From Anaerolineae bacterium (lineage in GTDB: Bacteria > Chloroflexota > Anaerolineae > Epilineales > JAANWY01): DNA of 64,000 nucleotides. Positions 491 through 57,525 of this stretch are shown here, in pieces. The notes below the pieces were generated by a model. That model was not told the DNA's origin. It ran no database searches and was given only the letters and a program-made list of their open reading frames with translations. The stretch spans positions 1,244 through 65,243 of the forward strand of contig JBHHTZ010000001.1 of assembly GCA_046753605.1 (NCBI GenBank), written 5' to 3'. How positions within the stretch are numbered: position 1 is the stretch's first letter; every line of letters begins with the position of its first letter. The translations under genes were made by a program, and so were the position numbers.

Positions 491-2827
491 ATGCCAAACG
501 GCTTTGATGAATTCGACGAACTGACCGGAAGCCGACCCCCCGAGAGCGAGGAAGAGCGCCGCAAGGGCACCGTCAAGAAGATCATCTACGAGCGCGCGGG
601 TACGAACTTCAAAATCATCCAGATGGAACTGGAAGACGGCAGCAAGGATGTCTGGCTGGGCGCGTTCGACGTGGGCGAGGACGCCGAGATAGAGAAGGGG
701 GACGTCCTCGAAGCCATCGGCCACCGCTCCTACTCCCCTCGAGGAGACGAGCAGTTCAGGGTCACAGACCTTGTGACCTACCTGCCGGGCTCGAAGGGCG
801 GACTGGTCACCTGGCTGATGTCGCGCCTGCCTGACATCGGCCAGAAGCGCGCAGCCGCGCTGGCCAAGGAGTTCCCGGGCGAGCAGCTGTTCTCGGTCAT
901 GGCCGACCACCCCGACCAGCTGACGCGCGTCTCGGGCATCACTGAGGAGCGCGCCCAGAAGATTCACGAGGTCTACAAAGAGTTCGCCTACAAGGCCAAC
1001 ACCGTGATCAAGATGGTGGACCTGGGCCTGGGCTGGATAAAAGTCACCCGAGCCATCAAAGCTCTCGGAGTCGAAGACTTCAAACGCGCTATCCGTGAGG
1101 ACGCCTACTATCTAGTCGACCAGCCCGGATGGAGCTTCAACTACATCGACAAGTGGTCGACGAAAAAGAAGAACAACCCCTACCACATGGAGACGGACGA
1201 CCCCAGGCGCATCCGCGCGAAGATACGCGATGTGCTCGAAGTGCTTGCAGCGGCCGGCAGCTTCGACTGGGACCGCGAAGGTGGCGACTGCTATCTGATG
1301 CCCAGGACGGTGGGACATCTCTGCCGTACCGAGGGTTGGATCTCCGACCCCCGACGGAGAGCGGTCGGCCCCTACGCTCCCGAGCAGATCGCCGAGATTC
1401 TGAAAGAGAGCCCCTACCTGGCCGTACGCACACACGCGCTGTTCCTGGCCGATATCGACGCGGCCGAGCGCGAGGTGGCCGACGTCCTTCGTGGACGCGC
1501 AGTAAACGAACCCGTACAGCCCATACCACTTCCGACCCGCAAGTTCCGGCTCGACCCGAACCAGGAGCTGGCCGCCTCGGCGCTCGTGCAACTTCCGGTG
1601 GCCTGCATGACCGGAGGACCGGGTACGGGCAAGACGACCACCCTGCGCACGGCCCTGGACGCCATGTCCGCGCGCGGAGAGACGCTGGCCCTGGCCAGCT
1701 TCACCGGCAAGGCCGCCAGGCGGATGGGCCAGGCCACCGGCCGGCCGGCGAGCACCATCCACCGGATGCTGGAATGGACACCCACCGGGTTCAAGCGCAA
1801 CCAGGAGAACCCCATCGAGGCTGACGTGGTGGTCATCGACGAGGCCTCGATGGTCGATATCCGCATGGCTTCGCATCTGGTGGAGGCGCTGTCCGCGCAC
1901 ACGCGCCTGCTGCTGGTCGGCGACAGCAACCAGCTGCCCCCGGTCGGCCCCGGGCAGCCTTTCACGGACGTGCTGCGTGCTCGACGGGGCGAGGACTACG
2001 TGGTGCCCGTGTTCATGCTGACCACCACGCACCGACAGGCCGGCGAGAACTGGGTCATCGACAACGCCCCTCGTATCATCAACAAGATGATGCCGAGCCT
2101 GGACCCCGTCGAGAGCCCCGACGGGGACTTCCGCTTCTACCAGGCCAGGACTACCAATGACATCGTACAGCTGGTCGTAGGAGCGTACCGGCGTGCGCGT
2201 GAGCGCGGGGACGAACAGCAGCTGCAGGTGTTGACCCCCATGCGCAAGCCCGACCCCAGGGCCACCGCGCACACCATCAACCTGGAAGTGCAGAAGGCTC
2301 TGAACCCCAATAGCGGCTCGGACGACAAAAGCCGGTACTTCGACGGAGGGTTCAACGAGAAGGCACAGCGTTACCGGATCTACGTAGAAGACAAAGTCAT
2401 CTTTACTCACAATATGCCCAATCTAGGCCTATCGAACGGCGACACAGGCGTCGTGACAAAGATCTACATGGACAATAAGAACGCTTCCGAGTCTTTCGCC
2501 GAGGTTCGGTTCGATGGCCTGGAAGACGAAGAGCATCCCGACGGCGTCTACACCCTGAACGGCGAGCACTTCCAGCACGTAGACCTGGCCTACGCCATGA
2601 CGGTCCACAAGGCCCAGGGCAGCGAGTGGGAGAACGTCCTGTTCATTGCTGACGCAGCCCAGAGTCGTATGCTCAAACGGCAGCTGTTCTACACGGCCGT
2701 CACCCGCACCAGCAAGAACCTGCGCATCCTTGGTACCGTCGAGGGTGTGCGCGCCGCAGTAAACAGCGAGATGTCAAACAACCGCTGGACGAAACTCACC
2801 GACCGCCTGCTCGGCGTTCCGGTCTAA
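491..2827 (+). CDS. RecD/Dda-like SF1 DNA helicase
   Basis: Walker A GGPGTGKTT, Walker B VVVIDEASMV, motif III LLLVGDSNQLPP, motif V AMTVHKAQGSEWENV, motif VI YTAVTR; HhH-like N-terminal region. Confidence 0.85.
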   Translation: MPNGFDEFDELTGSRPPESEEERRKGTVKKIIYERAGTNFKIIQMELEDGSKDVWLGAFDVGEDAEIEKGDVLEAIGHRSYSPRGDEQFRVTDLVTYLPGSKGGLVTWLMSRLPDIGQKRAAALAKEFPGEQLFSVMADHPDQLTRVSGITEERAQKIHEVYKEFAYKANTVIKMVDLGLGWIKVTRAIKALGVEDFKRAIREDAYYLVDQPGWSFNYIDKWSTKKKNNPYHMETDDPRRIRAKIRDVLEVLAAAGSFDWDREGGDCYLMPRTVGHLCRTEGWISDPRRRAVGPYAPEQIAEILKESPYLAVRTHALFLADIDAAEREVADVLRGRAVNEPVQPIPLPTRKFRLDPNQELAASALVQLPVACMTGGPGTGKTTTLRTALDAMSARGETLALASFTGKAARRMGQATGRPASTIHRMLEWTPTGFKRNQENPIEADVVVIDEASMVDIRMASHLVEALSAHTRLLLVGDSNQLPPVGPGQPFTDVLRARRGEDYVVPVFMLTTTHRQAGENWVIDNAPRIINKMMPSLDPVESPDGDFRFYQARTTNDIVQLVVGAYRRARERGDEQQLQVLTPMRKPDPRATAHTINLEVQKALNPNSGSDDKSRYFDGGFNEKAQRYRIYVEDKVIFTHNMPNLGLSNGDTGVVTKIYMDNKNASESFAEVRFDGLEDEEHPDGVYTLNGEHFQHVDLAYAMTVHKAQGSEWENVLFIADAAQSRMLKRQLFYTAVTRTSKNLRILGTVEGVRAAVNSEMSNNRWTKLTDRLLGVPV

Positions 2828-18875: not shown

Positions 18876-21350
18876 ATGCTGATCTGGTCGGGATGTCATA
18901 ACGTAGCTCACTCCGCTTTCGTTGACTTCCAAGGTTCGCACCCTGACTTCGATACTTTCGTCAAAGCAGTACTCGACCCCAAGACGTTCAAACCCGCAAA
19001 AGAAAAAGACCAGTTGCCTTTGTTTATCCCTGCTGAGTTCGTGCAGGGTAAGCTGGTACGGCGCAGCAACAACAACGTGCTGTCTGTGCAGATGGGCGTG
19101 CTCGACCTCGACCACGGCTCAGTCGACGAACAGCGCCTAACCCTGGACATCGTCAAGAGCTACGGCCACGTCGTATATACGAGCTTCAGTCACGACCCGA
19201 ACGGTCAGCACAAACGTCGGACCATGGTGAAGTTCTCTCGGTCTGTCAACGTGACCGAGTGGCGACAATTCTTCCCCCGGATGCTGTTGCACTTTAAAGC
19301 AACAGAAACAGCTGATAAGAAGTGCGCCGACCCTTGTCACATGTATTACGTGCCCGGAGGGGATTTTTCTAACTACGAAGTCTTCGGTGACGACGGACCA
19401 CCGGTTGATGTCGATGCGATCCTGGCCATGTCGCTGCCCGAGGGTATGGCCGAAAAACCCATCGAGGACTACGACGACATCTTGCCCGAGGATCAGCGCG
19501 GCACCATCGGAGACGGTCTGCGCGAAATATGGAACGGCAAACTGGTCAACCTGATAGACGAGATCGAGAACCGCCCCTATCCAGGCAGCATCTACGACCT
19601 CAAGGTGCATCAGGTCTTCGGCCTGGCGCGCGGCGTGCCTCACATCATGTCTGCCGAGCGACTGCGCAACAGCGTCGTGATCGCGCTGGACCGTCGCTAC
19701 CGAACGGCCCAGACCGACGAAGACACCGAAATGGTGCCGGTCTACCAGGAAAAATCGATCCAGCAGGTGGAGAAAGCCGTCGCTGACGGTATGCAGCAGC
19801 CCTGGTGGCCGCCGAAGAGCAACGAGATCATCTCCCGGCCGCTGACCGAGCTGGGCCTGGCCGAGCGCCTGGTGGACCAGCACGGCCAGAACATCCGCTG
19901 GGAGCCCACCTGGAAAAACTGGCTGGGCTGGAACAATAAGTACTGGAACCTGGAAGCCGGCCTCGAAGTCGTACGCAACAAACTAGAAAGTACAATACGC
20001 TCGATTCCGCAAGAAACTCACGCGCTTTCCGCCGATTACCTTGAGGCAAAGAAGCACTTCATTGCAGTGGCCGCCGACGAGAAGGTATCTGATGCCGTAC
20101 GAACCGACGCCGAAGTGAAATACGAGCGTCTGAAAAAACAGATAGAGGAGATAAACAAGTTTGCCCTAAAGTGCGAGACAGGGTCGAAATTTTCAAACGG
20201 GGTGACGCTGGCCACACACAAACCCGAAATACTCACCGACTATCGGGTGTTTGACCAAAATCCCTGGTTAGTGAATTTCAATAACGGAACATTAGATCTC
20301 CGCACCGGAGATTTCGGCCCCCACAAACGCGAGGACTTCCTCACCCGCACGGTCCCCTACAACTACGACCCCGACGCCAAGTGCCCGCGCTTCGACGCCT
20401 TCATGCGGGACTTCATGCAGGAGAACGAGCGCATGATAGCCTTCCTGTGGCGCGTGATGGGCTACACCGCGTGCGGGGTGACCGACGAACAGAAGATATT
20501 CGTACTGCACGGCGACGGAGCGAACGGTAAGAGCACGTTGCTGAACCTGCTGGTAGATATCTTCGGAGAGGGTAGCAGCGGTTACGGCATCGCCGCCAAC
20601 AGCGAGAACCTGCTGTCGACCCGCAACAGCAGCAAGCACGAGACGTGGCGCATGTCCCTGGCCGGCACACGGATCGTCAGCTGCCAGGAGGTCGACGAGG
20701 GGCGCTCGTTCGCCGAGTCCCTGCTCAAGGAGCTGACTGGATCGGACAAGATCACCGGCCGGAAGCTGTATCAAAACGAGTGGAGCTACAAGCCCCAGTT
20801 CACGCTATGGCTCGCGGTCAACCACCTACCGCATGTGCGAGGGACCGATGAGGGCATCTGGCGGCGTCTGTGCGTTATCGAGTGCCCGGCCAACTTCCGC
20901 AACCGCCCCGACCGAGACATGCCGCGTCGGCTACTGCTCGAAGCCCCGGGCATCTGGACGCGCCTCGCGCGCGAAGCTCGTGCCTGGATCAGAGAACGAC
21001 TGACCCTGCCGCGCGAGGTGGTCGTATCCAACACCATGTACCGGCACGAGCAAGACCCCCTGCGCGACTTCGTCGAGCGGTGGTGCATCATAGATGCCGA
21101 GGCTGTCGAAGCACGGCCGACGATCTGGGCCGCCTACGAGGAGTACTGCGCCGCGGAGAAGATCAAGACCTTCCACGAGCGGAAGAGGTTCTACGCTGCA
21201 CTGGAAAAACAATTCGCGATCAAGAAAATCCACGGTCAACGATTTTTTGCCGGCCTGCGCGTCAAGACTCAGAAAGAGCGCATTGAGTCCACCCCGCGCG
21301 CTGTTTTGCAACGCGCCCTGGCTGCGCGCGAGGAAGAGCCACTGAACTAG
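18876..21350 (+). CDS. Primase-helicase (D5/P4-family NTPase with N-terminal primase-like region)
   Basis: Walker A VLHGDGANGKSTLLNLL, Walker B IVSCQEVDEG, P4 primase C-terminal domain organisation. Confidence 0.85.
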   Translation: MLIWSGCHNVAHSAFVDFQGSHPDFDTFVKAVLDPKTFKPAKEKDQLPLFIPAEFVQGKLVRRSNNNVLSVQMGVLDLDHGSVDEQRLTLDIVKSYGHVVYTSFSHDPNGQHKRRTMVKFSRSVNVTEWRQFFPRMLLHFKATETADKKCADPCHMYYVPGGDFSNYEVFGDDGPPVDVDAILAMSLPEGMAEKPIEDYDDILPEDQRGTIGDGLREIWNGKLVNLIDEIENRPYPGSIYDLKVHQVFGLARGVPHIMSAERLRNSVVIALDRRYRTAQTDEDTEMVPVYQEKSIQQVEKAVADGMQQPWWPPKSNEIISRPLTELGLAERLVDQHGQNIRWEPTWKNWLGWNNKYWNLEAGLEVVRNKLESTIRSIPQETHALSADYLEAKKHFIAVAADEKVSDAVRTDAEVKYERLKKQIEEINKFALKCETGSKFSNGVTLATHKPEILTDYRVFDQNPWLVNFNNGTLDLRTGDFGPHKREDFLTRTVPYNYDPDAKCPRFDAFMRDFMQENERMIAFLWRVMGYTACGVTDEQKIFVLHGDGANGKSTLLNLLVDIFGEGSSGYGIAANSENLLSTRNSSKHETWRMSLAGTRIVSCQEVDEGRSFAESLLKELTGSDKITGRKLYQNEWSYKPQFTLWLAVNHLPHVRGTDEGIWRRLCVIECPANFRNRPDRDMPRRLLLEAPGIWTRLAREARAWIRERLTLPREVVVSNTMYRHEQDPLRDFVERWCIIDAEAVEARPTIWAAYEEYCAAEKIKTFHERKRFYAALEKQFAIKKIHGQRFFAGLRVKTQKERIESTPRAVLQRALAAREEEPLN

Positions 21351-21359
21351 GAGGTAGCC

Positions 21360-22184
21360 ATGGGACAGTACGTCTGGAAGCAAAAAGGACTGGAAGTAGA
21401 AGATCTACAAAACGCCCTTGTTGAAAAAGGCTATACCTTGCCCCGGTGGGGTGCCGATGGTGTGCTCGGCAATGAGACATGGCGCAGGGTGGAGCAGTTC
21501 GCAGGTGTCGACTCGTTCCCCACCTCTCGCTCGCTACCCGAGGACGTTACCGACTCCATCCTGACAACAGACGAAGAACCAAAACCCGCACCACCCCCAG
21601 ACTGGGTGCGCGTCGATGGCGACCCCAACGACGTAAAGGGGTACAGGAGCTGGCAGCAGATCGACACCATCGTGCTTCACCAGACCGGTGTGTGGATGTC
21701 CGACACTCCCGAGAGGTTCCGCACGCTCAACGCCCACCTGGGCATTCTGGCCACGCACCCGACCCCCATCGTGCAGGTACAGGACTTCACGGCCTACATG
21801 TGGCACGCCAACGAGCTGAACCGCTGCAGCATCGGCATCGAGATCAACGGCCGCTTCCCCGGTCTGGCCGGCCGGTACGACGCCGAACTACACACCGCGG
21901 GTGGTCCCTCGGCCGGCCAGATACAGAACACCCGCCATACCATTCTGCATCTCATGCAGCTGGCCATCTGCCATCGAGGGGAGATCAAGTACATCCTGCC
22001 GCACCGGGTCAGCAACGACCAGCGCCAGGGCGACCCGGGGGAGATTGCCTGGCGGGAGATTGGCCTGTGGGCGCAGCACGAGCTTGGTCTATGCGACCGC
22101 GGGCCTGGCTGGTCTATCGGTGACGGGAGGCCTATCCCGGGGCCGTGGGACAGCCGGGTGGCTTACGCGGGATATCCCTACTAG
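21360..22184 (+). CDS. Endolysin: peptidoglycan-binding domain plus N-acetylmuramoyl-L-alanine amidase (Amidase_2/PGRP)
   Basis: N-terminal PG_binding_1-like GADGVLGNETWRRVEQFAG; C-terminal HQTG...NRCSIGIEINGRF amidase_2 pattern. Confidence 0.8.
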   Translation: MGQYVWKQKGLEVEDLQNALVEKGYTLPRWGADGVLGNETWRRVEQFAGVDSFPTSRSLPEDVTDSILTTDEEPKPAPPPDWVRVDGDPNDVKGYRSWQQIDTIVLHQTGVWMSDTPERFRTLNAHLGILATHPTPIVQVQDFTAYMWHANELNRCSIGIEINGRFPGLAGRYDAELHTAGGPSAGQIQNTRHTILHLMQLAICHRGEIKYILPHRVSNDQRQGDPGEIAWREIGLWAQHELGLCDRGPGWSIGDGRPIPGPWDSRVAYAGYPY

Positions 22185-22223
22185 GGCGCAACCTGCCCAT
22201 TTTTCAAGGATAATTTCGAAGTC

Positions 22224-22340
22224 TTGCCCCTGGCCGGCTGCTCGGGGTATACTACCTGGGCTCGTGGGACTCCCCCTGCGAGTGTTCGCGGCAGCTTCGC
22301 CGCGTGACATCGGGGGCCGAGATACCCCCAGAGGTAAACC
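22224..22340 (+). promoter_or_regulatory. Promoter (TTGCCC-18-TATACT) plus about 85-nt structured leader, copy A
   Basis: Duplicated at 23905..24022; two hairpins (22287..22304, 22312..22329) kept by compensatory changes between copies. Confidence 0.6.
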
Positions 22341-23276
22341 ATGCCAGAGAACCTGCCACTGCAGAAACGGACAGGCTTCAATCGAGGCGAACAGTCCGTA
22401 AACCTGAACCGTATCCGGCACCTGGGGCAGCCTGCCATCAAAGCCGGCCCCGGCGACACCGTCATCCTGAAAAACGCCCCCGTCATCCCTGGGAGAGGGC
22501 AAAAAACCCCCAGAACACAAATAATGAACCTCACAGTCGGCGGTTACGTGTTCAACCGCACCGGGAACAACATCGACTACGATTTCATCCTAGTAGACCC
22601 CGACGGAAAAGAATTCGCCTACCACGCAGAAGACCTGGGAGTGGGTTCGTGGCCCCTGCCCAATGATGAGAACCACCCCATCCCTTCCCTGGGATACCTC
22701 GCATATTACGCCAGAAGCAATACGGGAATCCCGCTGAGTCTGTTGCTGCCCGGCTGGTCCCTCGTTCTTCGAGTCAAATCGGGGAACCCTCTCAGCGGCA
22801 GAGGCCTCATCATATGGGCCTGGGCGAACGACATGTCGAACAACCTACAAGCACTCATGGTGCCTGTGACCAAAACCGAAATCGAACTGGGACCGGACCC
22901 CGGTCGCGCCTGGCAGCTTTGCGGGAGCAACCTGCTACAAGGCCTTCCCCTCACTCCGACGTACCTCAACTTCGACAGTGTCGTCAGAACCGTCGAGCAG
23001 GGAGCAGAAATATATCGTCTCGCGGGCGAAGACATCCAGGTCAACAACTTGAGGCCCGACATCGCTGTGGACCCCCGTACAGATGCCAATACAGGAGTCG
23101 AGGCCGGTTTCTTGACCGAAATAGGCGACCAGAAAAAGCCGAATGGGTTGGTTCTGTCCTGCCCTGATAAAATAAAGGTCAAGGCAAAAGAGAACCAGAC
23201 CAGCGGCCCGCTGTACCTGCTCGTCCCCTTCGCTGAGTTCGATCTGCCGGCCGACATGCAGGTGGAGGAGGAGTAG
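22341..23276 (+). CDS. Hypothetical protein, paralog A of the MPEN(L/I)PLQ family
   Basis: 311 aa; N-terminus and GYVFNRTGNNIDYDFILVDPDGKE segment shared with 24023..24436. Confidence 0.6.
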   Translation: MPENLPLQKRTGFNRGEQSVNLNRIRHLGQPAIKAGPGDTVILKNAPVIPGRGQKTPRTQIMNLTVGGYVFNRTGNNIDYDFILVDPDGKEFAYHAEDLGVGSWPLPNDENHPIPSLGYLAYYARSNTGIPLSLLLPGWSLVLRVKSGNPLSGRGLIIWAWANDMSNNLQALMVPVTKTEIELGPDPGRAWQLCGSNLLQGLPLTPTYLNFDSVVRTVEQGAEIYRLAGEDIQVNNLRPDIAVDPRTDANTGVEAGFLTEIGDQKKPNGLVLSCPDKIKVKAKENQTSGPLYLLVPFAEFDLPADMQVEEE

Positions 23277-23470
23277 ACCACGAACTACTTCCAAGCACTG
23301 CAGGTTCTTCACAACGGGAAGAAAAACCAAACCCCCCAGGAACAGCTGACCGCTGCTGCCAAGGTGGTGAACGCTTTTCGCAACCGGCGTCGAGTCCTCA
23401 ACCTGAAGCGGCTCAGTTACTCCGAAGTTGAAGCCCAGAACCTCATCTACACCGCTCCCGATCTACCGAC

Positions 23471-23896
23471 TTGATCGACATACACACATCAGACGGTCCT
23501 GTCGGCATCCCTGATTGTCCCTTCAAGGTGACAAAGTTCGACAGGCACGTCCGATACTTCACCGCCTACCTTGACGACGTCCCCGCGGGCCAGATGGCCA
23601 TTCTCAAGCGGGGGCAGTTCTGGTGGATCGACCACCTGTACGTCCAGCCACAGTTCCGGGGCCGGGGCGTCGTCCCGGCCCTGATCAAGGTGGTGCTGCC
23701 GGCCGCGGCCGAAATCACCGACCATGTCTGGGAGGAGTGCAAGGGCGTCACCCCTGAAGACCTGGCCCGCAACAGCGAGCGGTTCGGGCTCAAGATGGAC
23801 GTCCTGCGCACCTACCGAGCCGACCGGACGCCCTTCACCATGATCCGACGGCACGTGGCTCCACTGCGCCAAAAACAGCCTCCTACAGCGGCCTGA
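23471..23896 (+). CDS. GNAT-family N-acetyltransferase
   Basis: IDHLYVQPQFRGRGVVPAL matches GNAT motif A; TTG start in the track, true start uncertain. Confidence 0.55.
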   Translation: MIDIHTSDGPVGIPDCPFKVTKFDRHVRYFTAYLDDVPAGQMAILKRGQFWWIDHLYVQPQFRGRGVVPALIKVVLPAAAEITDHVWEECKGVTPEDLARNSERFGLKMDVLRTYRADRTPFTMIRRHVAPLRQKQPPTAA

Positions 23897-23904
23897 GCTG
23901 TCCT

Positions 23905-24022
23905 CTTGCCCATGGCCGGCCGCCTGGGTTATCCTACCTGGGCTCGTGGGACTTCCCCTGCGGGTGCTCGCGGGAGCTTCCCCGCGTGTCGGCGAGGGCC
24001 GAGACACCCTCGGAGGTAAATC
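23905..24022 (+). promoter_or_regulatory. Promoter (TTGCCC-18-TATCCT) plus structured leader, copy B
   Basis: Paralogous to 22224..22340; hairpins 23968..23985 and 23993..24010. Confidence 0.6.
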
Positions 24023-24436
24023 ATGCCAGAGAACATCCCGCTTCAGCAACGCGCTGGGCGAAACATCGGAACCGAGGCGCTGCCGCCTTTCATCAACGGC
24101 GCGGCAATGCCCGAGATCGTGGTCAACCCCTCGGGGGTCACCGTGGTCATGGTGGGCCAGGAGGGCGTCGTGCGCACCCCGTGCGTTCGCGCCAACAGTC
24201 TCCCCGATGAACTGGACGGACCCAACTGGGGCTTCGTCATCAACCAGACCGACAACGATCTGAACATCGACATCCTCTTCGTGGACAACGAGAACAACGA
24301 GATGAAACTCGGAGACATCGTTGTGCTCGCGCAAAGTCTCGAAGGGTTAATACTGGAATACGTCTTCGCCGCCGGGGCCTTCCTGGGTCTGTGCCCGGGT
24401 GAGAAGATCATCCTGCGCAGCTCCATCGCCGAATAG
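24023..24436 (+). CDS. Hypothetical protein, paralog B of the MPEN(L/I)PLQ family
   Basis: 137 aa; shares N-terminus and GFVINQTDNDLNIDILFVDNENNE with paralog A. Confidence 0.55.
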   Translation: MPENIPLQQRAGRNIGTEALPPFINGAAMPEIVVNPSGVTVVMVGQEGVVRTPCVRANSLPDELDGPNWGFVINQTDNDLNIDILFVDNENNEMKLGDIVVLAQSLEGLILEYVFAAGAFLGLCPGEKIILRSSIAE

Positions 24437-24468: not shown

Positions 24469-24957
24469 ATGCCTGTTACCGCATTTCCCTCTTTCCACGA
24501 TCTCAAAACCCGCAGCGCCAAAGGCGGTGGCTTCTCCGACGGCGGTGTCGTCTGTATCAGCCAACCACTTTCAGCCTCGCCCATCGAAATCGCGCCGCTC
24601 GCGGGCACCGCGCTCGGTGGCTTCTCGACCCCCGTAGGGCTCGGAGATTTTCCGATCGACATGAACCTGAACGCACTGGTCATGAACTTCGACCCCAACA
24701 CCCCGGTGGTCGTGGAAGCCTACCTCGTTTTCGAGGACGGCTCCCAGTCCTTGATCGGAACACTTCCTGTCCCTGCAAACACCCCTGCAGGCTATGGTGT
24801 GCTGCCGTGGCCGTGGCTGGGCCTCATCCTCACCCACCCCAACAAGATCCGCCTCAAGCTCGTGGCCGAAAGCGGGTACTCGCTGCCCACCGGCCGCGTG
24901 CGGGTCAAGGCCACTCTGGTGGAGTACGACAAGCCAGCCGATCTCGAAGCTGCCTAA
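24469..24957 (+). CDS. Hypothetical protein
   Basis: 162-aa ORF with RBS aaaaaggaataagaaacatg; Gly/Pro-rich. Confidence 0.5.
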   Translation: MPVTAFPSFHDLKTRSAKGGGFSDGGVVCISQPLSASPIEIAPLAGTALGGFSTPVGLGDFPIDMNLNALVMNFDPNTPVVVEAYLVFEDGSQSLIGTLPVPANTPAGYGVLPWPWLGLILTHPNKIRLKLVAESGYSLPTGRVRVKATLVEYDKPADLEAA

Positions 24958-25746
24958 TCACTCCTGTGAATGTGCAACAACCCCGTCAGGTTTCACCTGG
25001 CGGGGTTTTCTTTTTGCCCAGATGAATGTAACGAACGAGCGGCCGTAGCTCTTGCGTTTGGTTACAACACGCATCGCTCTCACCAAACCCATACCGTACC
25101 CCGGGCTCCTGTTCTCTGCAGTATGATCTATCGTCGCCCGGACCAGAAAAGCCTCTAAAGGTTTGGTTGTCTCCTTCACGTACTTCAGCACCACCTCATG
25201 TGCCATCCCTGGGCCCGTGCGTGCAATAATGCTCTCAAACCTCAACGACCTATAACCCCCTTTGGCCATGTAACGCTTCTCATTCTTCACGGCCTGTTCG
25301 ATCAACCTGCACAACAGCTCGTGCCCAGGAGTAGATCGAATAAAACGAATTTCCAAAGCCAACGTGGGGGCTCCTCCCATCATCCCAAAAAGCGGCCAAT
25401 CGCACGTGGCTCCGGGTAGAATCTCCCCTTCAAGATCTGGTAACACGTCGATGTCCACGTACGCGCCGCCGAGCTGGTACAAGACGAAGTAACGGAAGAT
25501 GTCGGCGCAGCTCGCGTGGCTGCCGTAGTGCCTCTCGTACTTGAAGACCTCCTCGATGTCCGAGCCGGTTATAAGATCATCCACCAGGCGCAGCTCAACA
25601 CCAGGCACCGGAGGTTGCTCGATCTGGCCACTGTGCCAGAGCACGCAATGCCAGCCGAGCTTCTGCCACGCAAGCAGGTACTTCTCTCGCGACTCGGCCC
25701 ACGGTTCGATGAACCAACAAAGATGTAGATTAGAATCCCATGTCAT
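24958..25746 (-). CDS. Glycosyltransferase, GT32-like (Gly_transf_sug, DXD type)
   Basis: ADIFRYFVLYQLGGAYVDIDV matches the D..RY..LY..GG.Y.D.D signature. Confidence 0.65.
   Translation of the reverse strand: MTWDSNLHLCWFIEPWAESREKYLLAWQKLGWHCVLWHSGQIEQPPVPGVELRLVDDLITGSDIEEVFKYERHYGSHASCADIFRYFVLYQLGGAYVDIDVLPDLEGEILPGATCDWPLFGMMGGAPTLALEIRFIRSTPGHELLCRLIEQAVKNEKRYMAKGGYRSLRFESIIARTGPGMAHEVVLKYVKETTKPLEAFLVRATIDHTAENRSPGYGMGLVRAMRVVTKRKSYGRSFVTFIWAKRKPRQVKPDGVVAHSQE
24981..25015 (+). terminator. Rho-independent terminator for the plus-strand paralog genes
   Basis: 10-bp stem CCCCGTCAGG/CCTGGCGGGG with loop TTTCA followed by TTTTCTTTTT. Confidence 0.6.
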
Positions 25747-25831
25747 TTATTTTCTCTACAAAGCTAGTCTGTCTCTCTATGTCGACGGTGTGTGAGTACC
25801 GATATTGTCCTCACGTTTTTCTCCGTACTGG

Positions 25832-26650
25832 CTAAAAGCCCATATCGTTGATTTTTTCTACGAAGCTCGTTTGCCTTTTACATCGAGGACACCGCACCTT
25901 GTCATCTGCCGCAGCCTCGAACGGTCCACATTTTTGACATCTGTATGTTGCCGAAATCTCACTATAGAAAGTGACGTGGAGCGGATCCTTCACCTTACGT
26001 AAACAGTGTAGCTCTTTGGATTGAAACTGAATGGCGATGTACTCTTCCGGCCCGAACCGCGAGGTTGGGATCTTCTCCCAGTCCCTGGTGAATAACAACG
26101 AGTGTCTCACCCAGTAGTACGTGCCGGCAAAGTGTTTGCCGTATTGGCCCTTGCACAAAAAACAACCCGCTGCTGCGACGGGCTTTTTAACGAAAAAACT
26201 TGTTGCTTGTTTAGGAATAAAAACGGCCTCAATCCTCTCGGGGTTCGAGAGGCACTCGTCGTACATCCTGTTGCGCCACTGCCGCACCGACGTCTGTTCC
26301 AGTTGACTACACTCTACAACCGCCTTGCGCACACCTTTGGTGTGCGCGTAGAAGGTTATCTCGTCGTCCCTGGTAGACTTCAAACTGCTCAAGCCTTCAA
26401 GGAACCCGGCCAGCTCGTGCAGCTTCGGGTCGTTCGGTATTAGACGAAACTCGACGTCGCCGTGTTCTTCGAGCGGGGCAAAACGAGTTTTCACGAAGTT
26501 GGGATTGGCCATGTCTCGGCCGGTCTTTATGTTGATTAGCAACCGGTTGTTGAACGCCGAGCCGTACTTGCAGAGCCAGCGGATGTTATCCATCCACACC
26601 TCTTCAGCATCGACATGCGGACAGCAATTATAAAATAAATTTCGGAGCAT
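25832..26650 (-). CDS. Hypothetical protein within the glycan-modification cluster (possible glycosyltransferase)
   Basis: 272-aa ORF between the GT32-like gene and the methyltransferase, co-oriented; C-terminal Cys4. Confidence 0.45.
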   Translation of the reverse strand: MLRNLFYNCCPHVDAEEVWMDNIRWLCKYGSAFNNRLLINIKTGRDMANPNFVKTRFAPLEEHGDVEFRLIPNDPKLHELAGFLEGLSSLKSTRDDEITFYAHTKGVRKAVVECSQLEQTSVRQWRNRMYDECLSNPERIEAVFIPKQATSFFVKKPVAAAGCFLCKGQYGKHFAGTYYWVRHSLLFTRDWEKIPTSRFGPEEYIAIQFQSKELHCLRKVKDPLHVTFYSEISATYRCQKCGPFEAAADDKVRCPRCKRQTSFVEKINDMGF

Positions 26651-26653
26651 ATA

Positions 26654-47944: not shown

Positions 47945-48367
47945 GTGGGATTACTCGGCGTTGACCTCAACAAGGATCCAGGCACCGGGAACCTGAATCT
48001 TAGGGCGTGCTTCGCTGCTATCGTGGGTCCGAGTCGAGTGGCCCACGGTCGGCGTTCGGTCGTGCGGGTTCAGGCTGGCCGGCCTGTTCTCATCCTGGGT
48101 AACAAGACCCAGGAAGAGACGATGTACTTCGAGGTCTGGCTACCTCAGAGTAGCATCCTGGCGCTGCCTGGCGGGGGCGCGTTCCTCGGGCTGATGTCCG
48201 GTGAGACGGGCGGGCAGACTGCGGTGCAGACGCTGTTCAACGCGACGCAGCGGTACTCGGGTGTGTTGCTTCCGAGCGAGCAGGTATTCGCCGAAGCCGT
48301 GACGGACGCCCTCGGCGGCGCTCTGGCGGCCCAGGTGCCGGTGGTGGTTTCCTCGGTGGTGTTCTGA
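47945..48367 (+). CDS. Hypothetical protein
   Basis: 140-aa ORF (non-ATG start in the track). Confidence 0.4.
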   Translation: MGLLGVDLNKDPGTGNLNLRACFAAIVGPSRVAHGRRSVVRVQAGRPVLILGNKTQEETMYFEVWLPQSSILALPGGGAFLGLMSGETGGQTAVQTLFNATQRYSGVLLPSEQVFAEAVTDALGGALAAQVPVVVSSVVF

Positions 48368-51300
48368 TGCCTTACCAGGACGCGCATCTGCTGGACTACC
48401 TGGGCGACTTCGCGATGGGCGACTTCGAGGCCACCAAGGCCTTGGTCCAGAGCGGGTTGCAGCAGTACACGGTAGCGGACCTGCAGTTGATCTTGGCCGA
48501 TCTCGGGTGGAAGACCTCCATGGTGCCTGTCTCGCCCATGGCGGACTTCGGTCTGTTCGGCCCGAAGACCGCGCGAGCCTGGGGACAGTCGGCCAGAAAG
48601 CGCAAGCTCAACCCGACGTTCCAGCGCGCGGGCCCCACCTCGGCGTATGCCCATCCTGCCACCGTGCGCGCCCTTGCCCAGGTGGCGAAGAGAGCGGTTC
48701 CGACGGCCGTGGTCGGCCCGAAGCTCGCGCCGGTCATTGCCAAGCCCGCTCCGGCTCCGAAGCCTAAGCCCGCGCCGGCACCCGCGCCAGCGCCGGCCGT
48801 GCAGCTGCACACCCGAGGGGTGACGGGGCTGCAGAACATCCTGTACGCCCTGGGTTGGACGACGAAGAAGCTGCCCAGGTCGAAGACGTACAGCCCGAAG
48901 CTCACCTGGGCCTGGGGCGTGTCGGCCAAGACCCGCAAGCTCAATCCGGTGTTGAAGCCGGCGAAGTACGAGGACTCGGCGTTGGTCGATTTCGCCACCT
49001 ATACCCAGATGGAGAAAGAGGCGGCCGCGAAGGTAGTCAAGAAGGACGCGCCGCCCGCAGAGAGGGAGAAGCCCGGCACGGTGGTCGAGTCCGTGTTGGA
49101 GCTACAGGACATCCTCTTCGGCGTCGGCTGGACTACCAAGAAGCTCGCGCGCGACGGGGACTACGGTCCACAGACCCGCAAGGCGTGGAGGATCTCTGCG
49201 AGGAAGCGAAAGCTGCCGACGACGTTCGAGCGCGTGGACGGCAAGACGGCCCGGGTCGCCCAGAAGGCCTACGACGTGCTCAAGGCTGCCGGAGCGCGCA
49301 GGGTTCCGACGCCCGCGCCCGCGCCCGAGCCCGAATCCGCCCCGACTCCGGTAGTGGGTATCAAGAAGCCCGTTGCCGACACTCAGAAGGTGCTGGCCCG
49401 GCTCGGCTGGCGGTCCAGAACGGTGCCGCACAAGGGCGCGAAGGATTTTGGCCTGTACGGCCCGAAGACGAAGAGCGCGTGGGAGTCCTCGGCTACCAAG
49501 CGTAAACTCAACCCGTTGTACCAGCGCGTGGATGGCAAGACCGTATTGGTCGACCCCAAGACCTACGTGGCGTTGTTGCAGGCGGGGCGCGAGAAGGTCG
49601 AGCCCACGACGCCGCCGGCCGACGTGGTCAAGAGTTCCGTGGCCGACGCGCAGCGTGTGATGATCGCGCTGGGCGTGCCGGAGTCGTTGGTGCCGCGACC
49701 GGGTGCTAAGGACTTCGGTCTGTACGGCCCGAAGACCCGAGGGGCGTGGCAGAAGGAAGCGGCCAAGCTTAAGCTCGACCCCAGGTTCGACCGGGTGGAC
49801 GGCAAGACGGTCAAGCTCAACAAGAAGACCTTCGACAAGCTCGAAGAGGTGGCGAAGATGCACGCGCCGCCGCTCGCGCCCACTCCTGTACCCGTGCCTG
49901 TGCCCGAGCCCGATCATGTTCCGGTGCCGGTCGGGATGGTTGCAAAGCCGGTCGCGGAGTTGCAGCATATCTTGATCAAGCTCGGCTGGATGTCTAGAAC
50001 TGTCCCGCGGCCGACGGCGAAGGATTTCGGTCTGTACGGCCCCAAGACCCGAGGGGCGTGGCAGTCCTCGGCGACCAAGCGCAAGCTTGACCCGCGCTTC
50101 GACCGCGTTGACGGTCGCACGGCCAGGGTCAACGAGCGCACCTACTTGAAGCTGTCAGCGGTAACGGGCAAGAAACCCGAGCCCACCCCGAAGCTGACGC
50201 CGGGTAAGCCGGTCGATGCGATCACGATCTTCGTCTCCGATATGCAGGACATCGTCCACGCCCTGGGCGTACCCGATACGCGGGCCACGACGGACGACAA
50301 GTTCGGGCCGAAGACGAAGCGGGCATGGGAGAAGGTGGCCACCGCTCGCAAGCTCAACCCGGGTATGACGGGCAAGCGGGGAGCCAAGCAGGTCCAGGTG
50401 GTGAGGGAGACGTATAACGTCTTGAAAGCTGCTGCGTTTCTGCCGAAGCCGCCGCCCGCGCCTGTGTCCAAGTCCAGGGTGCAGACCGAGGTCATTTCTG
50501 TCATGACCGTGCAGCGCGGCTTGAACAAGCTCGCGAAGGCCAAGCTCGACGAGGACGGCACCTGGGGCCCGAAGACCAGCAGGGCGTTGCGTTTCTGGCT
50601 CAACAAGCAGCCGGGAGGCAAGGCTGTCAACGTGGTCATCGTTGCCCGGGGCATAGGTACGGGCAAGATCCGTCTGCCGAAGACCTTCGTAGAGGTGTTG
50701 CGTTCGGCGGCCGTGGTCGCGCCGCCCCCGCCTGTTCCGCCTGCTCCGAAGGAGAAGGACGAAGAGCAGAAGGCGATAGATACTATCTTGAAGTTAGCGA
50801 CGGAGCGCGTCCCGGTGCTCACCGTACAGCGCGCGTTGATCTTCTTGCACAACTTTGACCCGAAGAAGTATCCGGCAGTCAAGCTCACCGGCACCTGGGA
50901 TCCTGCAACGCTGGAAGCGTTCATGATGGGAACCAAGGACAAGCTGCCCCCCATGCTGCAGAAGGCGTGGCGCAAGGCGTTGCCGCAGCTGCTGAGTGTA
51001 GACAATCGGACGCTCAAGTTGACGCTGGCCGATGCGAGAGTGGTACGAGACGGCGAGGCGAAATGGAAGAAGGCCCAGGAGAAGCCGAAGCCACCGCCGG
51101 TACCTGTGCCCAAGCCCAATTCCACGCCGACGCCTGTGCCGACTCCGACCCCGACTCCGACTCCGACGCCCACGCCCGCGCCCGAGCCGGAACCGGACTT
51201 GCCCGATTACGATGTGCCTGGCGACGAGCCTGACGTGTTTCCACCTGGCGGTGGTGGTGCTCCGGGGGTTCCGCCGGGCACAGCTATTCAAGCTGCGCAG

Positions 51301-51978
51301 GTGTGGGAAGGCGCTCTGCGGGCGCTCAACTCGTTGAGGATAGACGGGGCGCGCATTGCCAGCGAGATAAACAAGAGCCTGGAAGAGGGCGAGGTCTTGA
51401 CGTCCAAGGGCGAGCAGTTGCTCAACGCCTGGCTGAACGCGGCCGAGCGCCTCAAGCAGCGTGTTGCGCAGATCATCGAGGGAAGTCCCCAGGTAATGTC
51501 GGCTCTGGACGCGGCCGGCGGTGGCAGCATGTCGGGACTCATGGGCTACTTCGGAGATCTGTCCGGTACGGCGACCGAGGTGTTGTCGGTGCTCAAGACT
51601 CCGTTGGTTGAGGGCGGCCTGTCCGAGTGCGAGGGCTGTCCCCCGGTCGGTCTGGGAGCTGTTCCGGTGGCGGCGGTTGCCATGCGTCTCGGTGGCGCGG
51701 CCTGGGGCAAGCTCGTGCAGCTGCTTTCCTTGCCGGTCGTTCGCGCTGCGACCGTGACGTATATAGGTGTAAAGGGCGTGGGAGACGCACTGAACGCGGA
51801 CACGGCAGCCTACCGGGACATCACCACCAGGCTCAACGATGCCGTGGCCAAGGGAGAAATGACTGCAGAGGAGGCAAAAGGGTTGCGTCCTACTCGTCCC
51901 GCGGGCGGTGCTGCAATCGCAGTGGTAGGGGTTGTGGCCCTGGGAGGTCTGGCGTTATATTTACGGGGCAAGAAGTAG
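48367..51978 (+). CDS. Giant virion/internal protein with at least eight tandem PG_binding_1-like modules and C-terminal TM segments
   Basis: Repeated about 65-aa modules LQ.IL..LGW.....P...AKDFGLYGPKT..AW..SA.KRKL.P.F.RVDGKT separated by PAPAP/PTPVP linkers; C-terminal hydrophobic helices. Confidence 0.75.
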   Translation: MPYQDAHLLDYLGDFAMGDFEATKALVQSGLQQYTVADLQLILADLGWKTSMVPVSPMADFGLFGPKTARAWGQSARKRKLNPTFQRAGPTSAYAHPATVRALAQVAKRAVPTAVVGPKLAPVIAKPAPAPKPKPAPAPAPAPAVQLHTRGVTGLQNILYALGWTTKKLPRSKTYSPKLTWAWGVSAKTRKLNPVLKPAKYEDSALVDFATYTQMEKEAAAKVVKKDAPPAEREKPGTVVESVLELQDILFGVGWTTKKLARDGDYGPQTRKAWRISARKRKLPTTFERVDGKTARVAQKAYDVLKAAGARRVPTPAPAPEPESAPTPVVGIKKPVADTQKVLARLGWRSRTVPHKGAKDFGLYGPKTKSAWESSATKRKLNPLYQRVDGKTVLVDPKTYVALLQAGREKVEPTTPPADVVKSSVADAQRVMIALGVPESLVPRPGAKDFGLYGPKTRGAWQKEAAKLKLDPRFDRVDGKTVKLNKKTFDKLEEVAKMHAPPLAPTPVPVPVPEPDHVPVPVGMVAKPVAELQHILIKLGWMSRTVPRPTAKDFGLYGPKTRGAWQSSATKRKLDPRFDRVDGRTARVNERTYLKLSAVTGKKPEPTPKLTPGKPVDAITIFVSDMQDIVHALGVPDTRATTDDKFGPKTKRAWEKVATARKLNPGMTGKRGAKQVQVVRETYNVLKAAAFLPKPPPAPVSKSRVQTEVISVMTVQRGLNKLAKAKLDEDGTWGPKTSRALRFWLNKQPGGKAVNVVIVARGIGTGKIRLPKTFVEVLRSAAVVAPPPPVPPAPKEKDEEQKAIDTILKLATERVPVLTVQRALIFLHNFDPKKYPAVKLTGTWDPATLEAFMMGTKDKLPPMLQKAWRKALPQLLSVDNRTLKLTLADARVVRDGEAKWKKAQEKPKPPPVPVPKPNSTPTPVPTPTPTPTPTPTPAPEPEPDLPDYDVPGDEPDVFPPGGGGAPGVPPGTAIQAAQVWEGALRALNSLRIDGARIASEINKSLEEGEVLTSKGEQLLNAWLNAAERLKQRVAQIIEGSPQVMSALDAAGGGSMSGLMGYFGDLSGTATEVLSVLKTPLVEGGLSECEGCPPVGLGAVPVAAVAMRLGGAAWGKLVQLLSLPVVRAATVTYIGVKGVGDALNADTAAYRDITTRLNDAVAKGEMTAEEAKGLRPTRPAGGAAIAVVGVVALGGLALYLRGKK
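48430..50900 (+). repeat. Nucleotide-level tandem repeats encoding the peptidoglycan-binding modules
   Basis: Near-identical segments, e.g. aggacttcggtctgtacggcccgaagacccgaggggcgtggcag at 49711 and 50021. Confidence 0.7.
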
Positions 51979-51993: not shown

Positions 51994-53184
51994 ATGCGAC
52001 TCGGTGAAGAGATTGCGGTGTTGGACGGCTTTGACGATCTGGGGCAGGTGTACTCGAAAGACCTGAACCGCCTGATGGCCATCCCGAGCTACTACGAAAC
52101 CGGCCCTCAGTTCGGTGTGACGGCCGGTCAGAACCTGACCGGGGGCAGCACCTGGAATCCGCTGCTTCCGCTCACGCCGAGTAACGCGGGGTTGGCCGGG
52201 GCAGATCTGCCACCGGCCGATGCGGACCTCATGGGAGCAGCCGATGCGTTGGCGCAGCGAGGGAAGGGCTACCATCGTGCCATCCCGAGCAGCTACAACG
52301 CCGGAGCGGTGTTCGACCCGACCTCGGGGCAGAACTACAAGGGCGGCAGCAGCTGGGATCCTCTGATGCCGCTGACGCCGAGTGTTTCGGATCTGGCGCA
52401 GGTGCCGGATGTCGACTTGGCGCAGGTCTATACGAAGAACCTGAACCGGCTCAAGGGCATCCCCAACTACTACGCCGTCCCGAACCAGTTCGACATCACG
52501 GCCGGGCAGAACCTGACCGGGGGCAGCACCTGGGATCCGCTGCTTCCGCTCACGCCGAGCAGTGCGGGTCTGGCCGACGCCTACGACGGGCACCGGCTCG
52601 AAGACATCGACAAGCACTACGGCAGTACGCTCGACAAGATGCCGGGCTACTACGACAAGGGTGCCCAGTTCGATCCGAGTGGCGGGCAGTACTCGGGCGG
52701 CAGCAGCTGGGATCCGCGTTTGCCGCTCACGCCGAGCAGCTCGGGCCTTGCGGAGCTGTCGATCGTCGAGCCGATGGACGGTATCTTCGACAACGTCTTC
52801 AAGGCGAAGCTCTACCGCAGCCAGCTCCCGGCGTTCCGGCGCGCGGCCTCGCGCGGCAAGTTGCTGGCGGCCAAGAAGAAGGCCGTGAGCGCGTTGAAGC
52901 GCGGAGACGCCAGGTCTGCTGCCAAGTACGGGAGCCTGGTGAAGCGTATGCGCTCCATGCGGCGCAGCATCCTGAAGCCTGCTGGAATCAAGAAGCTCAA
53001 GGCGGCAAGGGCGGCGGCCTTGCGGCATGCCGCACCTGCTCGGGGGCTGGCACCTGACAAGGTTGCGGAGATCTTTCGGTCGGCTTCTCCGGTGGGGAAA
53101 AAGGCCATGTTCGAAAAGGCGGTGAGTCGTCGGGGACCTGCCATCAGCAGGGCGAGGGTTCCGGTTCACTCTTTCAGGTTCTGA
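51994..53184 (+). CDS. Repeat-containing virion protein
   Basis: Four tandem about 45-aa repeats QF(D/G)(V/I)TAGQNLTGGS(T/S)W(N/D)PL(L/M)PLTPS(S/N)AGLA; basic C-terminus. Confidence 0.6.
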   Translation: MRLGEEIAVLDGFDDLGQVYSKDLNRLMAIPSYYETGPQFGVTAGQNLTGGSTWNPLLPLTPSNAGLAGADLPPADADLMGAADALAQRGKGYHRAIPSSYNAGAVFDPTSGQNYKGGSSWDPLMPLTPSVSDLAQVPDVDLAQVYTKNLNRLKGIPNYYAVPNQFDITAGQNLTGGSTWDPLLPLTPSSAGLADAYDGHRLEDIDKHYGSTLDKMPGYYDKGAQFDPSGGQYSGGSSWDPRLPLTPSSSGLAELSIVEPMDGIFDNVFKAKLYRSQLPAFRRAASRGKLLAAKKKAVSALKRGDARSAAKYGSLVKRMRSMRRSILKPAGIKKLKAARAAALRHAAPARGLAPDKVAEIFRSASPVGKKAMFEKAVSRRGPAISRARVPVHSFRF

Positions 53185-56745: not shown

Positions 56746-57525
56746 ATGTCAAACGGAAATGTACCGCTGCAGTTACGAGGAGGCAGGAACTATGATGCCG
56801 CCCTGGGTATACTCAAGAGCTTCACCATCGATCAGGTGAAGATCGAAACCAACGAGATTGTCGTACTGGAGGGTACGGACGATCTCGATGTTGTACAGAT
56901 AGCAGACGCATTTCTCGGGATCGCCGAATCGGGCTACTCGCTGAGAAACAACACGGATGCCCCCATCGACGCGGCTCTGTTTCTCGAAGACAGATACGGT
57001 AGTTCGATAAAGGTAGACGAGCAGACAGCGGTTCCCAGCGGCACCGCAGCCACGCTTGAGTTTGTTAGCTTTTTCTCGTTACGTAAAGGCGACAGGCTCG
57101 TGGTGCGCGTCACCGGGAGCGTGACGGCCGGAGACGGCATATTGCTCATTCGCAGCATAGCGCAACTCTCTTCGAACTACGCGGAGCGTCTCACGTTGAA
57201 CGAGAAGATCACCCAGACGGCTTTCAGGTATCCGGGAGTTCCGGGTGTTGCTCCTGCTGCAGCGTTTTTGTCTGTTGCAAATTTCTCCGCGGAGGATGTT
57301 GGTTTCGAGGCAACGACGGTTTTCCCCGACGGTAGTCTGGACACCCAGTCGGACGCGGGAATGCTCACTGCGGAAGAGGTGACAGAGATTCCTATTTTTG
57401 CTCAAGGAGGCATCGAAACGCAGGTGCAGTTGGACTCGTTGCCGTCGAGCGGCTACCTGTATGGCGCATACGCCATGATCATCCCGACCGACCGTGTCCT
57501 GATACAACCGCCTCTGAACGGATAG
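56746..57525 (+). CDS. Hypothetical protein
   Basis: 259-aa ORF with RBS gggaggaatagaagATG. Confidence 0.55.
   Translation: MSNGNVPLQLRGGRNYDAALGILKSFTIDQVKIETNEIVVLEGTDDLDVVQIADAFLGIAESGYSLRNNTDAPIDAALFLEDRYGSSIKVDEQTAVPSGTAATLEFVSFFSLRKGDRLVVRVTGSVTAGDGILLIRSIAQLSSNYAERLTLNEKITQTAFRYPGVPGVAPAAAFLSVANFSAEDVGFEATTVFPDGSLDTQSDAGMLTAEEVTEIPIFAQGGIETQVQLDSLPSSGYLYGAYAMIIPTDRVLIQPPLNG

Follow-up and report, generated by a model that had tools for sequence, protein, structure and literature searches.

A promoter-coupled leader RNA with covarying hairpins upstream of paralogous genes in a clade of uncultured phages

Two promoter-leader cassettes ahead of paralogous genes

The 64,000-nucleotide (nt) stretch of contig JBHHTZ010000001.1 that we analyzed, referred to here as the window, looks like phage or prophage DNA. 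It carries two copies of a promoter followed by a structured leader, each immediately upstream of one of two open reading frames (ORFs), ORF A and ORF B, that are weak paralogs of one another (30% identity over 99 amino acids (aa), E = 9e-8). A repeat search of the window finds the two copies as a direct repeat of 148 nt, a two-copy family whose members (22222-22369 and 23904-24051) are 84% identical. Each copy contains the promoter hexamers TTGCCC-18-TAT(A/C)CT, a leader of about 87 nt, a Shine-Dalgarno (SD) sequence, and the first codons of its ORF. We call the three hairpins of the leader H0 (the promoter-proximal one), H1, and H2; the two window copies are W_A and W_B, and L-numbers denote related contigs. 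The coordinates of all features are given in Table 1.

We reached relatives of this locus through exact-protein look-ups that led to syntenic contigs, and read the DNA upstream of each homolog. A large protein collection holds 10 homologs of ORF A, with identities of 36-100%, and 19 of ORF B; ORF A is 100% identical to a hypothetical protein encoded by a 73.8-kb contig of a metagenome-assembled genome (MAG) labelled Anaerolineae bacterium. Three contigs carry the leader in both positions, before ORF A and before ORF B (L004, L005, and L056). It lies upstream of ORF B in L061 and L062 and upstream of ORF A in L065, where a third copy on the opposite strand precedes a 266-aa gene (type C) that is transcribed divergently. 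In four loci that are more distant (L057, L058, L063, and L064; L059 and L060 are identical to L058), the leader is a short form that consists of H1 and H2 only.

In an alignment of the promoters anchored on the -10 hexamer, TTG is invariant in 14 of 14 sequences, TAYNCT is nearly invariant, and the spacing is 17-18 nt. Among the nine sequences scored for entropy, the values are 0.00 bits for TTG and 0.31 for the -10 hexamer, and 1.39 for the spacer and 1.43 for the upstream sequence. These conserved hexamers, set against an essentially random spacer, show that the predicted sigma-70-type promoter hexamers ahead of both leaders are real. The first stem (H0 in long-form leaders, H1 in short-form ones) begins 6-7 nt after the -10 hexamer in all 14 leaders; because this holds in every leader, a hairpin would lie at the predicted 5' end of the transcript, after about 0-3 unpaired nt. 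A scan for terminators of the intrinsic type finds no such site on the plus strand from 22341 until 24979-25007, at the end of transcription unit B, and no U-tract follows any of the leader hairpins.

Table 1. Features of the two cassettes and of the surrounding window.
Feature	Position	Strand	Basis or remark
Promoter A -35, TTGCCC	22224..22229	+	Read from sequence
Promoter A -10, TATACT	22248..22253	+	18 nt 3' of -35
Leader A (5' untranslated region)	22254..22340	+	Covariance model, 103.3 bits; RNAfold; pair counts
Leader A helices	H0 22260-22268/22275-22283; H1 22287-22292/22299-22304; H2 22312-22316/22325-22329	+	
Leader A SD, AGAGGU	22330-22335	+	
ORF A, 311 aa, start MPENLPLQKRTGFN, all-beta protein	22341..23276	+	ATG at 22341
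Promoter B -35, TTGCCC	23906..23911	+	Read from sequence; promoter alignment
Promoter B -10, TATCCT	23930..23935	+	18 nt 3' of -35
Leader B (5' untranslated region)	23936..24022	+	Covariance model, 108.3 bits; pair counts
Leader B helices	H0 23942-23950/23957-23965; H1 23969-23974/23981-23986; H2 23993-23998/24007-24012	+	
Leader B SD, GGAGGU	24012-24017	+	
ORF B, 137 aa, start MPENIPLQQRAGRN, minimal paralog (one beta-sandwich domain)	24023..24436	+	ATG at 24023
162-aa ORF, second gene of transcription unit B	24469..24957	+	Follows ORF B in all relatives whose contig extends past ORF B
Intrinsic-terminator-like strong hairpin (13 base pairs and T-run), ends unit B	24979..25007	+	Consensus scan
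Putative terminator-like small hairpin and T-run	22184..22198	+	Consensus scan only; just 3' of the amidase stop codon, upstream boundary of cassette A
Fourth paralog, 259 aa, start MSNGNVPLQLRGGRN	56746..57525	+	Inside an operon; ordinary SD, no leader, no covariance model match
D5-type primase-helicase	18876-21350		
Amidase_2 endolysin-like gene	21360-22184		
GNAT	23471-23896		
Integrase	33085-34071		

Selection on the structure and sequence of the leader RNA

In both window copies H0 reads GCUCGUGGG-ACUYCC-CCUGCGRGU, lies directly 3' of the -10 hexamer, and is predicted by RNAfold. H1 pairs CGCGGC with GCCGCG in copy A and CGCGGG with CCCGCG in copy B, while H2 pairs GGGGG with CCCCC in copy A and GAGGG with CCCUC in copy B. 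We counted pairs in an alignment, A3, of 14 distinct leaders (10 related metagenomic phage contigs), which covers 21 pairs and 258 pair cells. Standard pairs occupy 96.1% of these cells, compared with 34.5-66.1% when the 3' partners are slid by 1-3 columns, and both sides have changed at 7 of the 21 pairs. Among 500 column shuffles, none reaches the observed paired fraction, the count of double-change cells, or the covariation score.

Covariation is seen at five of the six pairs of H1. Here G:C is exchanged for C:G in W_A and L005_A, C:G for U:A in L005_B and L061_B, and G:C for A:U in L057_B; in L065_C the stem is wholly replaced (CACGAC/GUCGUG) and pairing is retained. One pair of H2 toggles between A:U and G:C, and the changes in H0 are wobble-compatible steps together with one double change. 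RNAalifold finds H1 and H2 independently; the H0 columns are gapped in the short forms. H0 holds 31 G.U cells and is 100% paired when read as plus-strand RNA, as opposed to 65.6% when read as minus-strand RNA or as a DNA palindrome. Because these G.U pairs fail on the other strand, the structure is specific to the sense-strand RNA. Together, the comparisons show that the leader RNA's predicted secondary structure, three helices with covariation on the sense strand, is under selection.

A covariance model built from A3 gives 94-108 bits to the long-form copies, 35-47 bits to the short forms, and at most 18 bits to the opposite strand at the same sites. When the 64 kb were scanned with filters off, the model found exactly two copies, and everything else scored 13.2 bits or less; because the two copies reach 103-108 bits against this background, the repeat is not due to chance. 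The best match on window sequence that had previously been unmatched, at 12.2 bits in the unfiltered scan, looks unrelated.

An earlier reading made from the window by itself (the original prediction) had described two such promoter-leader copies ahead of paralogous ORFs, with one compensatory swap in each of two hairpins, and had proposed that RNA structure is under selection. The copies are as described, except that the -35 hexamer of copy B begins at 23906 and the start had been placed one base early, at 23905; hairpins H1 and H2 and both swaps are present in the sequence, and the ORFs are indeed paralogous, if weakly. Folding both leaders with RNAfold and building and searching with a covariance model, which had been suggested as checks, gave a predicted fold for each copy and recovered the two window sites. 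The argument from covariation now extends to 14 distinct leaders and gains strand specificity from the G.U pairs; the homologous leaders conserve the hairpins, and they do so with covariation. The original prediction had missed H0, its likeness to H1, and the fact that the first stem lies at the predicted 5' end of the transcript.

H0 and H1 are near-identical in sequence across A3 (GCUCGYGGGA-CUUCCCC-GCGNGU). The long form looks like the product of a tandem duplication of the single such hairpin in the short form, and the two-hairpin form would then be ancestral. The SD lies 3' of H2, outside the conserved helices and 0-1 nt from the end of H2, and, of GGAGG, no more than the first G can take part in the closing pair of H2.

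Several further pairings and sites were considered and rejected. A closing helix between 5' UACCU and the SD (AGGUA), which appears in the RNAfold minimum-free-energy structures of the window copies, has a 5' partner that precedes the predicted start and that L004_B, L005_A, and L065_C do not conserve. Pairing between a CUUCC loop and the SD, checked by eye in A3, failed because the SD variants do not co-vary with the loops and the short forms have no H0. H1 of W_A and of L005_A has no CsrA-type GGA where the stem meets the loop, and neither does L057_B.

Conservation of the leader is not confined to its stems. Between orthologous loci the leader is 70-94% identical, compared with 57-88% for the adjacent proteins, 41-60% for four-fold synonymous sites, and 20-53% for 30 nt spanning the promoter -35 and spacer; these ranges exclude the near-identical pair L004/L056 and, for the spacer, also W_B versus L061_B. 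Unpaired leader positions have an entropy of 0.33 bits and paired positions 0.28, versus 1.39 for the neutral spacer. The linker between H1 and H2 reads GUGUC in 13 of the 14 leaders (W_A has GUGAC), with G51, T52, G53, and C55 invariant; the H1 loop sequences vary freely in A3. Indels of 1 and 2 nt are tolerated within the leader, as in the change from GGAGG to GGAAAGG. The first codons of the ORFs vary at synonymous sites and, because these sites differ, the similarity that runs on into the ORFs reflects protein-level conservation of the motif NxPLQxRxGxN. We rejected a small peptide or upstream ORF within the leader: the frame is not conserved, given a 2-nt indel in the SD region, and in L056 the called start is a GTG inside the leader. 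These alignments show that the leader is under purifying selection, in its stems and unpaired bases alike, and that it is non-coding.

Searches beyond the syntenic relatives added no further members. The whole window has no match in Rfam release 15 at gathering thresholds. At E <= 10, the region 22150-24100 gives five chance matches of at most 17 bits, far below threshold, four of which fall outside both leaders; the match to SOX2OT_exon4 (15.8 bits, threshold 40) sits on the other strand, where it overlaps promoter B and the beginning of leader B, and is likewise due to chance. The exact 16-mer CCTGGGCTCGTGGGAC has 3 matches in viral contigs, all in unrelated sequence, and the degenerate 18-mer GGACTYCCCCTGCGRGTG has 0 matches there. 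In metagenome contigs, none of the at least 50 matches listed for this 18-mer is real when checked against the motif and the covariance model, and real members may have been missed. The gapped pattern GTGTCR..RGGGCCGA..ACCCYC gives one match in viral contigs, at 12.7 bits and without an SD, which we judge to be chance, and locus searches of viral and GTDB genome contigs guided by the protein alignments of ORF A and ORF B returned nothing. In cultured phages, blastn and tblastn find no DNA match for the region and no protein match for ORF A; the primase has relatives of about 30% identity in many cultured phages. The element is new as an RNA motif, of a general kind that is known, and so far restricted to a narrow clade of uncultured phages.

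The downstream gene family and its surroundings

The proteins encoded behind the leaders fall into type A, of about 310 aa, type B, of about 135 aa, and type C, of 266 aa; each begins with NxPLQxRxGxN, and the three share an N-terminal domain. The AlphaFold model of ORF B has a predicted local distance difference test (pLDDT) score of 74 and only weak beta-sandwich matches; the protein models of this family are of moderate confidence. The paralogs have no match in Pfam, PHROGs, or PDB sequences. Fold searches return generic beta-sandwiches, and the weak recurrent matches to PBSX XepA and PirA are not interpretable.

Not every member of the family has a leader. The fourth paralog of the window has none, and the ORF A homolog of L057, placed right behind the GNAT gene, has no leader either. 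Because these operon-internal paralogs (window 56746 and L057) lack it, the leader is tied to the promoter-proximal position within the family and not to the family as such; the loci compared here show that it is restricted to paralogs heading a transcription unit.

The fourth paralog sits in a plus-strand, late-looking module and is tightly coupled to the preceding ORF. In some relatives, L065 among them (1779-2666, minus strand), a type C gene (264-266 aa; start MQGNVPLQQRGGQN) lies between the amidase gene and ORF A, is divergent, and has its own promoter, TTGACG-18-TATTCT, and a leader copy with a replaced yet pairing H1; the window has no type C gene. In L056 (5001-5042), the publicly called gene for P0019, the ORF B homolog, begins at the leader GTG and so gains 13 N-terminal residues (VSARAELPSERYI) that are spurious, the conserved ATG being at position 5040 of that contig.

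A small ORF of about 65 aa (23277-23474) follows the ORF A stop codon directly and in frame, and it is conserved in relatives, where an ATG lies one codon past the stop (TGA AAC ATG, TAG CCC ATG, TAG ACC ATG). In the window the orthologous codon is ACG and there is no canonical start near the 5' end of the ORF; a non-canonical start, termination-reinitiation, or a disabling mutation are all possible.

Upstream of the cassette region, the window carries genes for an ExoV/Dda-like helicase, a DNA polymerase, and further helicases and exonucleases. The neighbors of the paralogs are often glycosyl-, methyl-, and sulfotransferases. A block of glycosyl-, methyl-, and sulfotransferase-like genes (24958-27436 in the window; also in L005, L058, L063, and L064) always lies beside the ORF B unit, with its side and strand differing between relatives, a hint that the beta-sandwich paralogs or a cell-surface target may be glycosylated or otherwise modified.

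Farther downstream, an intergenic region of about 275 base pairs (28350-28625) is packed with repeats of the type GGGGCAGG. It contains GGGGGCAGGAGGGGCAGG twice in direct and twice in inverted orientation and the palindromic GGGGGCAGGTCACTTGCCCCCAA twice, together forming a 79-nt imperfect inverted repeat with an AT-rich center, and it coincides with the minimum of the cumulative GC skew and with a switch of gene strand from minus to plus. By these sequence features the region is a candidate replication origin (iteron array) or divergent control region. A 1203-aa ORF (48367-51978) has about 7 repeats of about 90-100 aa with PG_binding_1 and PG_binding_3 domains, matched by DNA repeat families D1 and D2 with a spacing of 267-333 nt; the neighboring ORF (51994-53184) has internal repeats of 177-201 nt (families D3 and D5).

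How the leader may act, and comparison with known systems

The explanation we favor, with a confidence that is evenly balanced, is that the leader is coupled to its promoter and acts in cis: it would protect the 5' end of the transcript and present the ribosome site, and would probably also bind a shared factor. Each copy would be a compact cassette in which a host-type (sigma-70-like) promoter leads into a non-coding leader of about 87 nt with three GC-rich hairpins, followed by the SD and the start codon, and the cassette would head units whose first gene belongs to a paralogous family of phage beta-sandwich proteins (types A and B, with type C in relatives). The leader most likely acts in cis, on RNA, and after transcription. 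Its first hairpin, at the extreme 5' end, would block 5'-end-dependent decay; 5' stem-loops and 5' untranslated regions are among the features that shield bacterial mRNAs from RNases, those of ompA and aprE included (PMC7509114). The last hairpin, which ends at the SD, would hold the ribosome site outside stable structure. Because loops and linkers are constrained as strongly as the stems, a single shared trans-acting factor is suggested: the conserved unpaired nt (the GUGUCA linker, the H0 loop, and the H2 loop) would probably form its recognition surface, and the factor would give the paralogs common translational or stability control. We infer the start of transcription, the effect on stability or translation, and the binding factor from sequence.

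Several observations count against this explanation. Given that the folding energies of the two window copies are ordinary for their GC content (z = -1.85 and -0.72) and that two copies are insufficient by themselves, the case for structure depends on comparative data and not on thermodynamics; the comparative set is small, with 14 leaders from one narrow clade, and several of its compensatory states are shared by descent. An exposed SD is true of the conserved structure and not of every predicted fold. Adding 24 nt of coding sequence gives predicted ensembles in which the SD is only 13-65% unpaired and whose structures differ from copy to copy; such thermodynamic predictions would neither favor nor rule out occlusion of the SD. 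The 5'-terminal position of the first hairpin is itself read from the promoter prediction alone. Finally, a pure stabilizer needs no conserved loops or linkers, and part of the function, perhaps the main part, may therefore lie outside what this explanation covers.

These same loops and linkers would fit a translational operator, in which a phage or host RNA-binding protein occupies the hairpins and the single-stranded bases by the SD and represses or activates all genes that carry the leader; in one variant, the protein might be the paralogs themselves, acting through their N-terminal NxPLQxRxGxN arm. We think this unlikely overall, though still to be taken seriously. Unpaired bases that are about as conserved as the stems argue for it, as do the 0-1 nt separating H2 from the SD, the near-identical tandem hairpins H0 and H1, as would be expected of a repeated binding site, and the fact that every leader-bearing gene is a paralog with the shared N-terminal motif. 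On the other hand, no RNA-binding protein is identified in the locus, where the neighbors are an amidase, a GNAT protein, and beta-sandwich proteins; no fold recognizable as RNA-binding turns up among the paralogs, whose matches are only to generic beta-sandwiches; the fourth paralog has no leader yet retains the N-terminal motif, which implies that the motif has a function of its own; and the H1 loop sequences vary freely. The operator overlaps with the stabilizing, factor-binding leader that we favor, differs from it mainly in emphasis, and is computationally inseparable from it. A more elaborate and doubtful proposal is a family-wide RNA switch. The loops and the GUGUCA linker would be read by a protein, which might be the NxPLQxRxGxN arm of the paralogs, and the 5' arm of H1 would swap its partner for codons 5-7, such that translation of the first codons and folding of the leader control each other. 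If true, a duplicated gene family would share a form of phage translational control that belongs to a new class. Pairing in the helix between the H1 5' arm and codons 5-7 reaches 81.6%, and in W_A and L005_A a C:G co-change ties the leader to the coding sequence. Together with a conserved, structured 5' untranslated region directly upstream of the SD, this helix is also what could speak for a riboswitch or RNA thermometer, in which refolding that depends on a ligand or on temperature hides the SD. However, this alternative helix is broken in L065_C, in L004_B/L056_B, and in L057_B, and it does barely better than shuffles (11 of 500), within the stated false-positive range of the tool. The conserved structure consists of three separate, simple hairpins without a covariation-supported junction or pseudoknot, the short forms do without H0, the SD falls outside the conserved helices, a terminator U-tract is missing, Rfam gives no match at E <= 10 other than the chance ones above, and the SD variants (AGAGG, GGAGG, and GGAAAGG) do not co-vary with the loop sequences. 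Moreover, the hairpins are GC-rich and stable, and the SD and AUG are not in a marginally stable hairpin of the kind seen in ROSE or fourU elements. The thermosensor and small-molecule-responsive element raised by the original prediction thus did not survive the comparison: the SD is outside the helices, the three hairpins are independent, and there is no conserved alternative helix or terminator. We regard this class of mechanism as very unlikely.

A role in transcription is another option, and we rate as improbable a put- or nut-like antitermination or anti-pausing RNA, whose nascent hairpins would bind RNA polymerase, alone or with a factor, after promoter escape. With 2-3 copies of 55-87 nt and two or three stem-loops from the predicted +1, the element resembles the put architecture of HK022, and the conserved unpaired bases fit a specific RNA-protein contact. 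Yet between 22341 and 24979 there is no intrinsic-terminator-like site on the plus strand and nothing evident to read through (Rho-dependent sites lie outside the scan), and the transcription units are only 1-1.6 kb. The best match in the HK022 genome reaches 11.5 bits (E = 0.09; model R1, filters off) on generic hairpins, versus 94-108 bits for the long form, and the element always ends exactly at the SD and start codon, which suggests a translational role. The inverted repeats could also act as DNA, either as operators for a dimeric transcription factor or as a PeSL-like recombination cassette, with RNA folding being incidental. Inverted repeats directly downstream of a promoter would suit this, as would a repeated cassette flanking variable gene content (gene order differs between L004/L005, L057, and L058), and the promoter-stem-loop cassettes known as PeSLs are a precedent for such shuffling (PMC4122927). 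What makes it highly improbable is that H0 is fully paired only when sense-strand G.U pairs are counted, that the compensatory changes alter bases and keep complementarity, which a sequence-reading protein would not select for, and that the order runs from promoter to hairpins to SD, unlike the terminator-to-promoter order of PeSLs.

The motif adds a well-supported structured RNA to uncultured phages that have no cultured relatives and almost no annotated genes. It would mark transcription starts and a set of co-expressed, probably abundant beta-sandwich proteins, and so offers a handle on regulation in these phages. It is compact and modular, a promoter plus about 87 nt, which would allow direct tests of its use as a cassette for expression or stability. 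Should the conserved unpaired bases bind a factor, the element would define a new phage post-transcriptional regulon; if they do not, it would be one more 5' stabilizer leader.

In the way it is likely to work, the element most resembles 5'-terminal stabilizer leaders, a group that includes the leader of T7 gene 10, used in pET vectors, which is a 5'-terminal stem-loop stabilizer. The E. coli ompA and B. subtilis aprE leaders (PMC7509114, a review that cites Emory et al. 1992 and Hambraeus et al. 2002) have one or more stable hairpins at the transcript start, a strong ribosome-binding site thereafter, action in cis, and an association with highly expressed genes, features that the window leader would share. 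The window leader differs from these stabilizers in that its loops and linker are constrained as strongly as its stems and that it occurs in 2-3 copies per genome before paralogs; its 5' end is a predicted one.

Other phage elements resemble the leader in part. HK022 putL and putR are two sequence-related copies per phage genome, of about 70 nt, each with two stem-loops, downstream of promoters (immediately so for putL), and work in cis as nascent RNA (PMC9378689). The likeness to put, and to lambda nutL/nutR, is one of architecture only, related copies downstream of promoters, of which the window has two and L065 three; there is no match in sequence or structure, there are no downstream terminators to bypass, the window element ends at an SD and start codon, and the host lineage is another one (an Anaerolineae-labelled MAG). 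The start-associated sequence (SAS; extended form, ESAS) of Cluster K mycobacteriophages is a 13-base-pair motif present 11-19 times per genome before unrelated genes; about half of the copies have imperfect inverted repeats just upstream, and the presumed function is in translation initiation (PMC3203893). Like SAS and ESAS, the window leader is a conserved repeat tied to the translation starts of a subset of phage genes, but it is about 87 nt long with three hairpins, occurs in 2-3 copies only before paralogs, is fused to a promoter, and shows covariation; the SAS 13-mer GGGATAGGAGCCC has no match in the window with up to 2 mismatches.

The PeSLs of T4-like phages are short repeated promoter/stem-loop cassettes dispersed beside variable genes; they are composites of a terminator and then a promoter and are thought to be recombination points (PMC4122927, PMC2839356). 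In the window, by contrast, the hairpins come after the promoter, lie within the predicted transcript, and are selected as RNA. In the MS2 and Qbeta coat-protein hairpin, T4 gene 32, and the RegA sites, RNA structure or sequence at or beside the ribosome-binding site controls phage translation. The leader described here shares with these translational operators a structured RNA that adjoins the SD and carries sequence-constrained unpaired nt, and it differs from them in being a larger, multi-hairpin element whose SD and AUG lie outside the hairpins.

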